Shown piece after piece: positions 1,397 through 11,499 of a stretch of DNA of 64,000 nucleotides. The position numbers and the translations under genes were made by a program. The notes beneath the pieces were generated by a model, which saw only the letters and a program-made list of their open reading frames with translations, did not search any database and was not told the DNA's origin. The DNA lies in contig JADZGD010000011.1 in assembly GCA_020854055.1 (NCBI GenBank), forward strand, positions 17,752 to 81,751, given 5' to 3'. This DNA comes from Bryobacterales bacterium (GTDB lineage: Bacteria; Acidobacteriota; Terriglobia; Bryobacterales; Bryobacteraceae). Positions within the stretch are counted from its first letter, which is position 1; each line of letters begins with the position of its first letter.

Positions 1397-3508
1397 ATGC
1401 GAACACTCTCTATTGCCTTACTACTAAGCGCCACCGCCGCGCTGGGACAGATCGGAAACGCCACCTGGGCGGCCGCCGTTTCGAGGCATTTCACCGAACC
1501 CGCATGGTGGGACCAGGGCGTGGTCTTCGTCGGCAACTGGGAACCCCTCATCTTCCGCCTGCGCCACGGCGGCGCCAACATGCCCGTCGACATGGTCGAT
1601 TCCTACAACCGCGAACACAGCGAAGATACCGTGCTCACACTGAAGCGGGCCGGCGTGAACATGATCATCACCAACTTCTACAAGATGGGAATCGCTGCTG
1701 AACGGGAAGATATCGAAGCCGCCAGGCGTCTCGCCGTACTCTGCCACAAACATGGCATGAAGATCGGAACCTACATCGGACGAACCATGTTCGCCGAGAC
1801 CCTGCTCCGCGATCTACCCGAAGCCAAAGCCTGGATCCGCCGCGACGAACACGGAGACCCCATTCGGTATGCCGCGCAGACCTACCGCTATCGTCCCGAT
1901 TTCAACCACCCCGGGTACGTCGAATACATGAAGAAGATTTCTCGAATGGCCATCGAATACATCCACACCGATCTGATTCACTTCGATAACCACGCCCTCA
2001 TCGCGCCGCCCTGGACCGGCGCAACTCCGGAGATCAACCGCCGCTTCCGCGAATTTCTACACCGCAAATACACCCCCGCCCAGTTGAAGCAGCGGTTGGG
2101 ATTTTCCGATATTAGCGCGGTTACCGTGCCTTCCTGGCAAGGGATTTCCCACCCGTCGGAAATTTCCCCAATCACCGACCCCGTCATGCAGGAGTGGATC
2201 GATTTCCGCTGCCAGGATTTCGCCGAATATTACGGCAAAGTGGCCGATTACATCCATAAATTAGATCCCAACGTCGTGGTGGAGCTGAACCCCCACGGCA
2301 TCTACGGAACGAACCGGGCCTTCCTGAACGGGGTCGATCATGCCCGCCTCGTGCCGCACGGGTCCGTGTTCTGGAGCGAAGAGCCCAATGAAGCGCAGGT
2401 GGACGGCCAGGGCAACCTCATCTCCAAGATCCGCTCCATGAAACTCGCGCGCAGCCTGAACCAGACTCTGTTCTCCTACACGGGCACCGCCCGCTCCGAT
2501 CCGGAAAAGCGGTCTCACCGGTTGCTGATGGCTGAATCCATGGCCTTCAACCGCAACTCCCTGGGAGATGTCGGCGATCCGTTAGAAGTCACCGGACTCG
2601 ATCAGGATGCCCTTACGTACATCCGCTTCTACCACCGTCACAATGCGCACTTCTCATCCACGCGCGTCGTCGCCGACGTCGCCCTGCTGCGCTCGTTCCC
2701 GTCGCTGGCCTACAACAGCGTGGAACCGCAACTGGAAACCACCCTCGCCGAGCAGTTGCTGATCCAATACAAGATTCCATTTGAGTACGTCTTCGATCAA
2801 GATCTCCCAAACCTCTCCCGTTACCGCGCCGTCATCCTGGCGGACCAGGAATCGCTTTCTGACAAAGCCGCCGAACAACTGAGTAACTATGTGAACCACG
2901 GAGGCGGCCTCCTGGCCACCGGACGTACATCGCTCTACAATGACTGGCGCCGCAATCGCGGAGATTTCGCGCTGGCTGCCACCCTCGGCGTGCATTATTT
3001 GCCTGGTAAACTTCCCGCCGCCTCTCGCCATGAATTCGGCCGTGGCCGCGCCGCCTATATCCCGGCCATTGAAAGCGTCGATCACATTCCAGGACTCGGT
3101 CCGGGCAAGGCCCCCGGGCCGGCCGGCGCCGGTGCATTCGGGAATCGCTATTGGAAGACGCCGCGCAACTCCGAAGAACTTCTCCGGGCGTTGCGCTGGG
3201 TAATCCGGGAACCCTTCTCGGTGGAGTTCGAAAACGCCCCCCTCACCACCGTAATGGAGTTGACCGAAAAAACGGGCGGCCGCGAACGCATCCTCCACTG
3301 GCTCAACTATAAACTCCCAACGGCTGTTGAACCCACGTACGTAACCGTATCCACCGGCGAAAACACCAAGGTCGCCTCAATCGAAGTGCTCTCGCCCGGC
3401 CGCCCGGCGGCCGCGACAATACCGTTTGAGCAAAACAGGAATCGCGTGCGCTTCCAAATGCCCGCGCTCGAGGTCTACAACATGGCCGTCATCCGCCTTG
3501 CAAGATAA
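1397..3508 (+). CDS. secreted glycoside-hydrolase-like protein (GH42-like TIM barrel plus GATase1-like C-terminal module)
   Basis: ORF 1334..3508. The internal ATG at 1397 gives the signal peptide MRTLSIALLLSATAALGQ. The C-terminal stretch AVILADQESLSDKAAEQLSNYVNHGGGLLATGRTSLYNDW resembles the GH42 trimerisation/GATase1-like module. The family call is tentative. Confidence 0.55.
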   Translation: MRTLSIALLLSATAALGQIGNATWAAAVSRHFTEPAWWDQGVVFVGNWEPLIFRLRHGGANMPVDMVDSYNREHSEDTVLTLKRAGVNMIITNFYKMGIAAEREDIEAARRLAVLCHKHGMKIGTYIGRTMFAETLLRDLPEAKAWIRRDEHGDPIRYAAQTYRYRPDFNHPGYVEYMKKISRMAIEYIHTDLIHFDNHALIAPPWTGATPEINRRFREFLHRKYTPAQLKQRLGFSDISAVTVPSWQGISHPSEISPITDPVMQEWIDFRCQDFAEYYGKVADYIHKLDPNVVVELNPHGIYGTNRAFLNGVDHARLVPHGSVFWSEEPNEAQVDGQGNLISKIRSMKLARSLNQTLFSYTGTARSDPEKRSHRLLMAESMAFNRNSLGDVGDPLEVTGLDQDALTYIRFYHRHNAHFSSTRVVADVALLRSFPSLAYNSVEPQLETTLAEQLLIQYKIPFEYVFDQDLPNLSRYRAVILADQESLSDKAAEQLSNYVNHGGGLLATGRTSLYNDWRRNRGDFALAATLGVHYLPGKLPAASRHEFGRGRAAYIPAIESVDHIPGLGPGKAPGPAGAGAFGNRYWKTPRNSEELLRALRWVIREPFSVEFENAPLTTVMELTEKTGGRERILHWLNYKLPTAVEPTYVTVSTGENTKVASIEVLSPGRPAAATIPFEQNRNRVRFQMPALEVYNMAVIRLAR

Positions 3509-3562: not shown

Positions 3563-4921
3563 ATGATTCTCAACCGCCGGCAGTTTCTTTACACCGCGGC
3601 CGCTCCGCTTGCCGCCCGCCCTGCTCCGCCTCCCAACTTCGTCATCATCTTTCTTGACGACTCGGGCTACGCCGACTTCCACCCCTTCGGCAACCCCGCC
3701 TACCGCACACCAAACGTTCAGCGTCTCGCCTCACAGGGCTGCCGGTTCACAAACTTCTACGTCCCGCAAGCCATCTGCTCGGCCTCGCGCTCCGTGTTGC
3801 TCACCGGCTGCTACCCCGGCCGCACCAAACTGGTCGGAGCCATCGGCCCCGGCGCCCGCGGCCTCGATCCGTCTTTCGCCACCATGGGCCAGGTGCTCAA
3901 AACCGCCGGCTACCGCACCGCCTGCTTCGGCAAGTGGCACATCGGCGACCAGCCCGATACGCGCCCCAACGTCCGTGGCTTCGATGAATCCTGCGGCCTG
4001 ATGTACTCCAACGACATGTGGGAGTTCCACCCCCAGCACCCCGAAGCCTATATCGGCAAGCCTCTCCAGTTCTGGGAGAGCGGCAAGGTGAAAATTGCTC
4101 GTATGACCAAAGAGCACCAGCCGATGCTCACCACCTGGTACACCGAACACGCCGTCGATTTCATCCACCGCAATCGGAAAGATCCCTTCCTGCTCTACGT
4201 GCCTCACTCCATGCCCCACGTGCCGCTCTTTTGTAGTGACAAGTTCCGCGGTAGATCGGGCGCCGGCCTCTACGGCGATGTGATCGAGGAAATCGATTGG
4301 TCCGTCGGCGAGATCGCGAAGGCGCTGCACCGGGCCGGCCTCGACGGTAATACCCTGGTCCTGTTTACGTCCGATAACGGCCCCTGGACCTCCTACGGCA
4401 ATCATGCCGGTAAGACGCCGTTCCGCGAAGCGAAAGCCACCAGCTTTGACGGCGGCGTCCGCAGCGCCTGCATCGGCCGCTTCCCCGGACGCATCCCGGC
4501 CGGCTCGGTCTCGCACCGTATGTTCTCCACCGTGGACATCCTGCCTACCCTCGCTCACCTGGCGGGCGCCCGCCTGCCCTCGGACCCGATCGACGGTCTG
4601 GACGTCTGGGACCTCATCGCCGGCAAGCCCGGCGCGAAAAATCCGCACCAGTACTATCCGTTTTCCACGATCGACAGGCTGGAGGGTGTCCTCTCTTCCG
4701 ATGGACGCTGGAAGCTCCACCTGCCGCATCCATACCGGACCCTGGTCCGCGCCGGAAACGGCGGCCAGGCCGGCGTCTATCGCCAGGCCCGGATCGAACT
4801 CTCACTCTTCGACATGGAAGCCGATCCGTACGAGAAAACCAACGTAATCAGCAGGTACCCTGAGATTGCCGCCCAACTGCAAACCTGGGCCGAACAGCAG
4901 CGCCGCCAGTTCTATGATTGA
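3563..4921 (+). CDS. Cys-type sulfatase (arylsulfatase A family), Tat/Sec signal
   Basis: N-terminus MILNRRQFLYTAAAPLAA. Metal-site motif FVIIFLDDSGYADF. Formylglycine motif C-S-A-S-R followed by SVLLTG (Cys codon at 3776..3778). Confidence 0.9.
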   Translation: MILNRRQFLYTAAAPLAARPAPPPNFVIIFLDDSGYADFHPFGNPAYRTPNVQRLASQGCRFTNFYVPQAICSASRSVLLTGCYPGRTKLVGAIGPGARGLDPSFATMGQVLKTAGYRTACFGKWHIGDQPDTRPNVRGFDESCGLMYSNDMWEFHPQHPEAYIGKPLQFWESGKVKIARMTKEHQPMLTTWYTEHAVDFIHRNRKDPFLLYVPHSMPHVPLFCSDKFRGRSGAGLYGDVIEEIDWSVGEIAKALHRAGLDGNTLVLFTSDNGPWTSYGNHAGKTPFREAKATSFDGGVRSACIGRFPGRIPAGSVSHRMFSTVDILPTLAHLAGARLPSDPIDGLDVWDLIAGKPGAKNPHQYYPFSTIDRLEGVLSSDGRWKLHLPHPYRTLVRAGNGGQAGVYRQARIELSLFDMEADPYEKTNVISRYPEIAAQLQTWAEQQRRQFYD

Positions 4922-9597: not shown

Positions 9598-10940
9598 AAC
9601 CGGAAACTCCGCAGCGTCTCGTCCCAAGGCTTGCGATACGGCCGCTCCAGCAGCGCGGAGGCTTCGCGGTCATCCACTACTTCTTCTTTAACGGCATCCC
9701 ACCGCAGCCGCCGTCCCAACCGTAAAGAGAGGTTTGCCAGATGGCACGAAACCGCCACCAGGTGCCCCTGCTCGACATCCGCCACCGGAAGCTTCCGCGA
9801 CTTCACACAATCCAGGAAGTTCCGCGTGTGAGCAGGCAGCGGATCGCTCCCCGCCTCGCCGCCCTTCACCACTCCGGTGCGCGGCCGTGGCTTCCCTGCG
9901 TGCACCGCCTGCGGATGCCCCGGTGGCCGCGACCACTGCGGGATCTGCCCCTGCGCCGGAATGTCCAAATCCGGATACACCTCAAAGCCGCTCCGCCCGA
10001 TCATCATGCTCCCCTTGGTGCCGAACAGTTCCGTCCCCGCTCCCTCGCCGCGCCCGCCGCTCGCCTCCCGAATCGAAATGATGATGTTGAAATCCGGATA
10101 CTCCAGAATCGCGTCCTGAACATCCGGAGTCTCCCCGTTATCCTGCAAGCAATGCCGCCCGCCGCTCGAGTATGCCGCCCTGGCCGAATTCACCTTCAGC
10201 GCATAATGCACCAGGTCGATATCATGCGCCCCCAGGTTCGTCATCTGCCCGCCCGAGTAGTCCCAGAACCACCGGAAATTGTACAGCGCCCGGTTGCGGT
10301 TATACGCCCGCGCCGGCGCCGGCCCCTGCCATAGCTCATAATTCATCCCCGCCGGAGGAGCCGAATCGGGTGGATTGCCGAAACCGGGCATCACGTTGCG
10401 AAACGTCCCAATGCGCACGCTGTGGATCCGGCCAATGTGCCCCGCCCCAATCAGCCGCAGCACCTCGGGGAAGTGATCCCCGCTGCGCCCCTGCGTTCCC
10501 ACCTGCACCACCCGCTGGCAGCGCCGCGCCATGGTAGTCATCCATCGCCCTTCACGCACGAACAGCGTCATCGGCTTTTCAACGTAGACATCCTTTCCCG
10601 CCGCGCACGCCATCATCGTCTGCAAAGCGTGCCAATGGTCGGGAGTGGAAATCACCACTGCATCGATGCCTTTATCATCCAGTACGCGCCGGAAATCGCC
10701 AGAAGCCGCCGGATGGTTGCCACAAGCCGCCCGCGCCGCCTCCTGCCGCGGGGTGTAAACGTCGCAAACCGCCGCCGCCTCCACATCCGGCTGCTGCCGG
10801 AAATCGGAGATGTGCCGCATCCCGATCAGCCCGCACCCGATAAACCCCACGCGGATCCGCTCATTCGCCCCCACAATCCGGCCATAGGACAAGGCGCCGG
10901 CCGCACCCAGAAACGCCCGCCGGGAAGAAGGACTGTTCAT
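9594..10940 (-). CDS. Tat-signal Gfo/Idh/MocA family oxidoreductase
   Basis: MNSPSSRRAFLGAAGALS twin-arginine signal. Rossmann start RVGFIGCGLIGMRH. Characteristic VYVEKP motif. Confidence 0.85.
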   Translation of the reverse strand: MNSPSSRRAFLGAAGALSYGRIVGANERIRVGFIGCGLIGMRHISDFRQQPDVEAAAVCDVYTPRQEAARAACGNHPAASGDFRRVLDDKGIDAVVISTPDHWHALQTMMACAAGKDVYVEKPMTLFVREGRWMTTMARRCQRVVQVGTQGRSGDHFPEVLRLIGAGHIGRIHSVRIGTFRNVMPGFGNPPDSAPPAGMNYELWQGPAPARAYNRNRALYNFRWFWDYSGGQMTNLGAHDIDLVHYALKVNSARAAYSSGGRHCLQDNGETPDVQDAILEYPDFNIIISIREASGGRGEGAGTELFGTKGSMMIGRSGFEVYPDLDIPAQGQIPQWSRPPGHPQAVHAGKPRPRTGVVKGGEAGSDPLPAHTRNFLDCVKSRKLPVADVEQGHLVAVSCHLANLSLRLGRRLRWDAVKEEVVDDREASALLERPYRKPWDETLRSFRL

Positions 10941-11116
10941 AGTAGGAAAGAGTATATGTGGGAGACAACCCGCCAGGCAAGCTGCCGCCGCGCGCTACGA
11001 CGCCCACGGGTTCCGCATCGACAAGTTGCCCCCCTGGCGGCGCAACCCCATGACGCAAAGGACGCGATGAAAACCAGATCGGTTGAGTCAATTTTTCGTG
11101 CTATCTTGGGAACCGT

Positions 11117-11443
11117 GCGGGCGTGGCGGAATCGGCAGACGCATCGGACTTAAGCGTAAACTTGAGTGCTCGCCGGGAAACTGGCGATGCAGAACTGCTC
11201 AAATTCGGGGAACCCTACAAGTTGGCGATCCCGAGCCAAGCCCGGCCCGAATCGGCCGGGAAGGTGTAGAGACTAGACGGGCAGCACCTAACGCTCGGAC
11301 CCAAATCCGGGCCACGGTGAAGGGATAGTCCAGACCCCAAACCCCATCGCGAAAGAGGTGGGCGGCGGCGAAAGCCGTAGCAGGGCATGAAAATCCGTTG
11401 GACCGCAAGGTCCGTGAGGGTTCAAGTCCCTCCGCCCGCACCA
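11117..11443 (+). tRNA. tRNA-Leu(UAA), interrupted by a group I intron (exons 11117..11151 and 11390..11443, CCA encoded)
   Basis: Acceptor stem GCGGGCG / CGCCCGC. T arm GAGGG-TTCAAGT-CCCTC. Long variable arm TTGGACCGCAAGGTCCGT (class II tRNA). The joined exons give the anticodon loop CTTAAAA, that is anticodon UAA. Discriminator A plus CCA. Confidence 0.85.
11152..11389 (+). ncRNA. group I intron (trnL-UAA / IC3-like), 238 nt, no internal ORF
   Basis: Inserted between anticodon positions U34 and A35. The 5' exon ends in U, and exon ACUU (11148..11151) can pair with GAGU (11164..11167), giving the U-G wobble of P1. The intron ends in G (11389). The core strings GGCGATCCCGAGCCAAGCC, GGAAGGTGTAGAGACTAGACGGGCAGCACCTAACG, GATAGTCCAG and a GCGAAAGC tetraloop hairpin match my recollection of the Anabaena/plastid trnL intron core. 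Confidence 0.8.
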
Positions 11444-11499
11444 ATTCTTTCGCGTTCCGGCCCGCCAACGCCGGCAGGAGCGGAGTTGACCTGGCGTTT

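Follow-up and report, generated by a model that had tools for sequence, protein, structure and literature searches.

On the + strand of the 64-kb stretch analyzed here (64,000 nt; hereafter the window), which comes from an acidobacterium of the order Bryobacterales, lies a tRNA gene in two pieces. Exon 1 (11117..11151, 35 nt) supplies the 5′ strand of the acceptor stem, the D arm, the 5′ strand of the anticodon stem, and the loop nucleotides C32, U33, and U34. Exon 2 (11390..11443, 54 nt including the CCA) begins with A35 and A36 and carries the rest of the anticodon arm, the long variable arm, the T arm, the 3′ strand of the acceptor stem, the discriminator A, and the CCA. Joined in silico, the 2 exons give an 89-nt class II tRNA with the anticodon loop CUUAAAA, the discriminator A, and an encoded CCA, and ARAGORN calls this spliced 89-mer as tRNA-Leu(taa). 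The material between them is a 238-nt insert that is preceded by U11151 and falls between U34 and A35. An earlier reading of the DNA from its letters alone (the sequence-only reading) had proposed exactly these exon boundaries, this class II tRNA-Leu, and this insertion at the U34/A35 site of trnL(UAA), and had named tRNA folding of the spliced sequence as the check; all of it stands, to the nucleotide. Three Bryobacterales metagenome-assembled genomes (L027, L080, and L094), and another that is labeled only “Acidobacteria” (L113), encode a mature tRNA 100% identical to this one. In the analysis itself, the host is assigned from the sequences of this tRNA and its intron, which make Bryobacterales the most likely order. 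The split gene is the sole tRNA gene in the 64 kb and is neighbored by genes for a GH35 beta-galactosidase, a GFO/IDH/MocA oxidoreductase, and an altronate dehydratase. Since the ORFs flanking the split gene use both UUA (11 of 312 leucine codons) and UUG (40 of 312), a tRNA with the anticodon UAA is needed.

The insert (11152..11389) reads as a group I intron, IC3-like and without an ORF. A sensitive local cmscan aligns 11142..11351 to the full RF00028 (Intron_gpI) model, positions 1-253, with 48.5 bits (E 2.6e-11), and in the sensitive scan of the whole window RF00028 is the only RNA-family match at E ≤ 0.01 (E 2.9e-09). The sequence-only reading, which offered a covariance-model search against RF00028 as the check on its group I assignment, is upheld by this match; moreover, the 3 core stretches that it quoted are found in the sequence, and the insert does end in G (the omega-G, G11389). 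Thirteen helices were drawn by hand, and every pair in them is standard in the window. P1 (11148..11167; strands 11148-11154 and 11161-11167) brings the exon sequence ACUU and the intron’s first AAG against the internal guide CUUGAGU in 7 of 7 standard pairs. In it ACUU (11148..11151) lies opposite GAGU (11164..11167) and the splice-site wobble is U11151·G11164, as had been suggested from the letters. P2 (11170..11187) is a 7-bp hairpin capped by a GAAA tetraloop, L2. P3 (11195-11200/11279-11284) spans 11195..11284 and encloses P4 (11204-11209/11230-11235), P5 (11214-11217/11222-11225), which is minimal in the window, P6 (11236-11237/11263-11264), and P6a (11241-11247/11254-11260). P7, the guanosine-binding helix that closes the pseudoknot (11269..11331), pairs G(A)GACUA at 11269-11275 with UAGUCC at 11326-11331 and encloses P8 (11285-11288/11316-11319) and P8a (11293-11299/11306-11312). 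The P9 domain (11335..11385) consists of an outer helix of 3 bp (11335-11337/11383-11385) and, inside it, 2 hairpins capped by GAAA, P9a (11343-11362) and P9b (11365-11378).

The minimum free energy fold (-101.9 kcal/mol, z = -3.2; equaled by 0 of 200 shuffles) independently recovers P1, P2, P4, P5, P6a, P7, P8, P8a, P9a, and P9b. As to subgroup, IC3 introns are taken here as those that lack P2.1 and a P5abc extension and whose L2 and L9 are GNRA tetraloops matched by receptors in P8 and P5. The helix inventory appears to fit; L2 and L9b are GAAA, P8 carries what looks like a variant of the GAAA-tetraloop receptor (CCUAAC...CACGG), and the putative receptor in P5 is non-canonical. No clear P10 pairing is seen in the hand-drawn fold. 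A homing endonuclease within the intron was considered and rejected: the longest reading frame is at most 62 codons, which leaves no room for one.

A second family also matches in this region. In the sensitive local cmscan, the LOOT model (RF03000) aligns end to end with 11285..11379 at 35.6 bits (E 4e-05), and a match at the same place recurs in one close acidobacterial relative (L094, 28.9 bits), so that the region might be imagined to encode a LOOT-type small RNA instead of part of an intron. We rejected LOOT as an identity, and such a small RNA is extremely improbable: LOOT’s gathering score, 46.4, is not reached, the alignment skips the middle 49 model positions, and LOOT is absent at E ≤ 0.01 from 15 other intron loci. 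The parts that do match are P8 with its receptor-like motif and the 2 GAAA hairpins of P9, and we read the match as probably reflecting generic RNA modules within a complete group I fold. The relationship could even run the other way, as LOOT itself would be an intron fragment if its seed alignment carried the invariant AAGGGAUAGUCCAG segment.

The group I fold was also examined in homologues. One genome per GTDB species was scanned with a pattern built around the two exon ends and the core 18-mer GGTGTAGAGACTAGACGG, and the split gene was found in at least 119 species genomes, at least 118 of them non-cyanobacterial. By record title, the 119 matches listed comprise 40 Acidobacteriota, about 76 Proteobacteria, 2 Binatia, and a single cyanobacterium (Phormidesmis). 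Alphaproteobacteria (for example, Bradyrhizobium, Caulobacter, Brevundimonas, and Sphingomonas) make up most of the proteobacterial matches listed; the others include 9 Betaproteobacteria, Burkholderia among them, and, within the Gammaproteobacteria, Carnimonas. In-silico splicing yields tRNA-Leu(taa) in 116 of the 119 matches listed, with the CCA encoded in 115 of those 116, and the homologous introns listed are 202-249 nt long. The omega-G is present in 119 of 119, although a G there was demanded by the search pattern; the pattern likewise fixes the exon ends, the 5′ strand of P7, and 18 core bases, and invariance at these places is by construction. The pattern left the 3′ strand of P7 free, yet this strand too is invariant.

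Covariation was assessed by projecting the hand-drawn structure on a plain MAFFT alignment of the window with 50 diverse homologues (alignment A1), which was not fitted to any structure. Standard pairs fill 87.4% of the alignment cells, a share that drops to 29-47% once the 3′ partners are shifted by 1-3 columns; double-sided (compensatory) changes occur in 41 of 70 pairs across the 51 sequences; and none of 500 shuffles matches any of the 5 observed covariation measures. All 51 sequences have the U·G wobble of the 5′ splice site and also P7, which is paired throughout and invariant. P3 is 100% paired, with double changes in 4 of its 6 pairs, and P4, P6, and P8 are 96-100% paired (P4, 96%; P8, 99.5%, with double changes in 3 of 4 pairs). 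Compensatory changes are found in 7 of 7 pairs of P2, 6 of 7 of P6a, 6 of 7 of P8a, and 4 of 5 of P9b, the last being 95% paired. P9 and P9a have low values because their length varies and MAFFT leaves them out of register. A P3-P8 core with a P3/P7 pseudoknot backed by covariation, one of the hallmarks by which a group I intron is recognized here, is thus present, and removal of the insert between anticodon positions 34 and 35 leaves a valid class II tRNA-Leu, as expected of the catalogued class Leu.3Ug. We therefore hold with high confidence that the chromosomal tRNA-Leu(UAA) gene of this acidobacterium is split at U34/A35 by a small, ORF-less group I intron of the Leu.3Ug class, probably of the IC3 type.

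Given how well the intron and the spliced tRNA are formed, the behavior of routine annotation tools at this locus is instructive. ARAGORN with default settings detects no tRNA anywhere in the window, and default cmscan at the Rfam gathering thresholds reports nothing there. Both are blind because the intron interrupts the tRNA and because the RF00028 score falls 1.5 bits short of the gathering score, 50 in the Rfam copy used. Allowing introns in ARAGORN produced a candidate that had to be discarded, a tRNA-Ser(aga) with an intron at position 37, which is a wrong call. The warning in the sequence-only reading that standard gene callers may miss this tRNA was thus well placed, and this genome, if annotated with default tools, would appear to be without a tRNA-Leu(UAA). 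The problem is not peculiar to the window. Verified homologues score 36-59 bits against RF00028, and the 50-bit gathering score is reached by 4 of 18 such loci in one set and 6 of 15 in another (the sets share 2 loci, L010 and L071). Since most verified homologues are below the cutoff, introns of the Leu.3Ug type would be systematically under-annotated as a class. Williams 2020 (10.1101/2020.01.27.920355) quotes an older RF00028 cutoff of 40, and the tRNAscan-SE 2.0 paper states, in its authors’ own account, that the program is not meant to find such introns. Lowering the threshold, or using a model made for this family, would remedy the under-calling.

How the intron leaves the precursor can be proposed from its relatives, as the IC3 introns of Anabaena tRNA-Leu and Azoarcus tRNA-Ile are established models for the splicing steps. 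A precursor transcript of about 330 nt would be made, and the intron would fold into its P1-P9 core, with the guide GAGU on the exon’s ACUU forming P1 around U11151·G11164. An exogenous guanosine bound in P7 would then attack the phosphodiester after U11151; G11389 would next occupy the G site, and the free 3′-OH of U34 would attack after G11389, ligating CUU to AAAA to form the mature anticodon loop and releasing the 238-nt intron. By analogy with the 2 models, we infer this chemistry, self-splicing in the absence of protein, and the essentiality of the split tRNA. As the sequence-only reading had also pointed out, the position of the intron in the anticodon loop means that the tRNA reading UUA and UUG would need splicing before use.

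It could be objected that the intron is real but no longer self-splicing, either because it needs a host protein cofactor or because it splices inefficiently. Plastid trnL introns of this family do need protein help, and the window’s intron has some traits that would fit such a loss: an outer P9 of 3 bp, a minimal P5, no obvious P10, and a sub-threshold score against the general RF00028 model. Nevertheless, the catalytic core is complete, purifying as well as compensatory selection on it is strong, and the GAAA tetraloops of L2 and L9 and the receptor-like motif in P8 are present; L2/L9 tetraloop-receptor contacts are what stabilize the small self-splicing introns of Azoarcus and Anabaena. No maturase-like gene is adjacent to the split gene. 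We consider a loss of self-splicing unlikely.

Far less credible is the notion that the gene is dead, that is, a disused interrupted tRNA in a genome where Leu(UAA) is supplied from elsewhere. The inspection covered 64 kb of the genome, and neither a promoter nor a terminator consensus was recognized on the + strand: a strict search for the two promoter hexamers gave nothing there, and the terminator scan was equally negative for that strand. What speaks against a pseudogene is that the exons are 100% conserved with those of relatives and fold into a perfect tRNA, that the intron core and helices are kept by compensatory changes in many species, and that a -10-like block is conserved upstream. 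The block, TTTCGTGCTAyCTT, stands at equal distance from the gene in acidobacterial relatives; in the window a candidate extended -10 element, TGCTATCTT, lies on the + strand at 11099..11107, 10 nt ahead of the tRNA. The conservation of the block hints that it may be an extended -10 promoter element. In all, a pseudogene at this locus seems very improbable.

One of the nearest known counterparts is the intron of the Azoarcus pre-tRNA-Ile(CAU), an IC3 intron of known crystal structure. Represented by the seed Aol6.Ile2.5Ug, it is 86% identical to the window intron over aligned positions. Both are small (about 200-240 nt), ORF-less, IC3-like introns in a bacterial anticodon loop, with GAAA in L2 and L9 and a near-identical core, GAAGGUGUAGAGACUAGACGG; the Azoarcus intron differs in residing in another tRNA, at loop position 5 (3 in the window), and in having a simpler P9 and a canonical 11-nt receptor in P5. 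The trnL(UAA) introns of Anabaena, Synechococcus, and plastids share with the window intron the U34/A35 site and an overall IC3-like architecture, and their core (J3/4, P4, P6, P7, and J8/7) closely resembles its own; the proposal of the sequence-only reading that an intron of the cyanobacterial/plastid type occupies the cyanobacterial/plastid site in an acidobacterial genome is borne out. They are unlike it in their peripheral helices, and the host here is acidobacterial; the window has the core variant GGUGUAGAGACUAGACGG where GGUGCAGAGACUC is the usual cyanobacterial form. Over aligned positions the Synechococcus seed (Sel1) is 81% identical to the window intron, which is closer in sequence to proteobacterial IC3 introns than to this one. 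Vepritskiy et al. are said to have described, in J. Bacteriol. in 2002, a trnL(UAA) group I intron from a subsurface gamma-proteobacterium.

The closest fit is with a class that has already been catalogued. According to Williams 2020 (bioRxiv 10.1101/2020.01.27.920355), a scan of about 80,000 bacterial genomes showed group I introns interrupting 5,292 tRNA genes; the classical classes number 4, Leu.3Ug among them, 72 further introns, all in Proteobacteria, are classed as Leu.3Cg, and in the group I intron database cited there the classical introns of bacterial tRNA genes are labeled IC3. The Ncf2.Leu.3Ug seed of that study is about 93% identical to the window intron over aligned positions and has the same site (CUU/a...g/AAAA), U(-1), omega-G, and helix set, including nested P9 hairpins. 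It is unlike the window intron in the length and sequence of P6a, P8a, and P9a, and the outer P9 of the window, at 3 bp, is the weaker one. A tRNA-Leu-TAA with a putative group I intron is also on record in Beggiatoa “BOGUAY” and Ca. Thiomargarita nelsonii (PMC4853749), so that interrupted tRNA-Leu-TAA genes in gamma-proteobacteria had been reported by 2013-2016; the hosts are from a different group, and the likeness is by description only. That article (PMC4853749, citing MacGregor 2013) says that the interrupted gene was missing from the automatic annotation, just as at the present locus.

The sequence-only reading also bore on where the intron came from. It implied that such an intron outside the cyanobacteria would be rare and surprising, and the distribution does not support this: at least 118 non-cyanobacterial species carry the split gene, including at least 40 Acidobacteriota, and the Leu.3Ug class had already been catalogued (Williams 2020). 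It also left a choice between lateral transfer and a wider distribution. Wider distribution is what we find, and a recent transfer from a cyanobacterium was rejected. Identities of the window intron to the 119 genomic homologues listed range over 59-91%. The nearest of these are all acidobacterial (L094, 91%; L040 and L010, 89% each; L002, 88%), and the mean identity is 79% for acidobacterial, 75% for alphaproteobacterial, and 66% for betaproteobacterial introns listed. A phylogeny of the intron, which the sequence-only reading had recommended, was run as a neighbor-joining tree (without support values); in it the window intron is nested among acidobacterial introns, in a 36-leaf clade whose other members are 33 Acidobacteriota and 2 Binatia; of the 40 acidobacterial introns, 6 are placed outside this main clade. 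Nesting in a nearly pure acidobacterial clade is indicative of vertical inheritance, and the tree and the identities thus point to an intron that has probably been long resident, and vertically inherited, in the Acidobacteriota. The gene neighborhood adds nothing to this: tblastn of 6 flanking proteins against the 8-kb blocks around the 119 listed loci gave one weak, non-syntenic match (L044), and in the absence of synteny with the relatives’ blocks the neighborhood is uninformative both on the taxon and on intron history.

The identical core 18-mer and the same split gene also occur on 9 IMG/VR viral contigs, which are mostly low in GC; several are 100-335 kb long and have further tRNA genes. 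Phage-borne copies of the split gene thus exist.

A recent lateral acquisition from a cyanobacterium or a plastid would have such copies as available vehicles, and the insertion site and the intron family are those of the classical cyanobacterial trnL intron. Several lines go against it. The one cyanobacterial intron among the matches listed is the most distant of all, at 59% identity, and the Synechococcus seed stands at 81% against 93% for Ncf2; the intron is placed within the acidobacterial group, and the exons match those of Bryobacterales exactly; the intron’s GC content (61%) is about that of the window (62%), and it has no endonuclease ORF. A recent acquisition of this kind has very little chance of being the right account, and long residence in the Acidobacteriota is the history that we favor.

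A side observation concerns the DNA upstream of the split gene. In at least 15 loci, a truncated, intron-less copy of the 5′ half of the gene’s own tRNA lies there, spanning tRNA positions 1-14 through 39-44 and running uninterrupted across the CTT|AAAA junction. Ten of these loci are acidobacterial (L080, L094, L019, L002, L113, L059, L075, L102, L053, and L010) and 5 are alphaproteobacterial (L116, L039, L031, L073, and L095). For the 9 loci looked at closely, the distance from the end of the copy to the gene is 27-170 nt, and the alignment scores are 32-77, whereas downstream controls score no higher than 28. In these upstream regions ARAGORN detects no intact tRNA, and several of the copies share a 1-nt insertion, a G, by which a perfect hairpin is formed. 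A degraded remnant of the block appears to be present in the window on the + strand at about 11028..11085, recognizable only by alignment with relatives; against the window’s own tRNA it scores 14, which is background level.

The half-tRNA may be what is left of an intron-less allele that was displaced, something like the remnant of an integration site, or a functional leader. One could speculate that it is the footprint of the spread of the intron-bearing allele, or else a relic kept as a functional hairpin leader, and we regard this as rather unlikely. As a footprint, it might have arisen when the split gene with its short promoter inserted into, or recombined with, a resident intron-less trnL at the anticodon arm, and the old 5′ half may have been displaced in the process, leaving something that resembles an integration-site remnant. 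In a related speculation, integrases that target tRNA anticodon loops would lose their attachment site once an intron occupies the loop.

With respect to novelty, the locus is an un-annotated new case of a known and common kind, and neither the annotation point nor the evolutionary one is new. The main practical value of the finding is the correction to annotation. For the family, the locus adds to existing evidence that the trnL intron is widespread and that it is largely vertical in the trnL(UAA) genes of Acidobacteriota and Proteobacteria, and this wide distribution weakens the trnL intron as a marker of cyanobacteria and plastids.

We scored 33 loci, drawn from the at least 119 species-genome loci that carry a homologous split trnL(UAA) (L001-L119), against Rfam RF00028 (Intron_gpI) in two partly overlapping sets of 18 and 15, with L010 and L071 common to both. 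Scores fell between 36 and 59 bits, and only 4 of the 18 and 6 of the 15 verified introns passed the 50-bit gathering score, which means that the majority are lost at that setting; a passage in Williams 2020 (bioRxiv 10.1101/2020.01.27.920355) gives the earlier RF00028 cutoff as 40 bits. A second Rfam family, LOOT (RF03000), matched the P8-P9 domain at the 3′ side of the intron, end to end at window 11285..11379 (35.6 bits) and again in the Bryobacterales MAG locus L094 at 2073..2166 on the minus strand (28.9 bits), both below its gathering score of 46.4 and both leaving out the middle of the model. These matches probably arise from common modules, namely a tetraloop-receptor hairpin and two GAAA hairpins.

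In the window, mechanical ORFs of 243 aa (10422..11153, plus strand), 81 aa (11083..11328, plus) and 89 aa (11199..11468, minus) run across the tRNA exons and the intron. From these, a gene caller could place spurious hypothetical proteins on what is an RNA gene.

Just 5′ of the split gene, several acidobacterial and alphaproteobacterial lineages carry a truncated, intron-less duplicate of the 5′ half of the same locus's tRNA-Leu, spanning tRNA positions 1-14 to 39-44 with the CTT/AAAA junction uninterrupted. Counted from the tRNA 5′ end of each locus, the copies lie at -77..-39 (L080), -79..-41 (L094), -82..-50 (L019), -93..-54 (L116), -210..-169 (L039), -196..-152 (L031), -66..-27 (L073), -192..-150 (L095) and -179..-151 (L053), and in the window the corresponding block, at about 11028..11085, is degraded. 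In several, a 1-nt G insertion creates the perfect hairpin CGGACUU-AAA-AGUCCG. ARAGORN found no intact tRNA in the half-copy regions, and a search of downstream control regions for half-tRNA copies returned nothing comparable.

In Carnimonas nigrificans (L024), CRISPR-DR4 repeats at 3956..4104 are some 600 nt away from the split gene, whose 8-kb block also contains three ordinary tRNA genes.

Nine IMG/VR viral contigs (L121-L129) also bear this split tRNA-Leu(UAA), the 18-nt sequence of its catalytic core being identical. Their GC content ranges from 25 to 57%, several are 100-335 kb long with further tRNA genes close by, and in-silico splicing yields tRNA-Leu(taa) for all but one of the nine copies. 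These split tRNAs may be phage-encoded, or they may represent host DNA at prophage borders.
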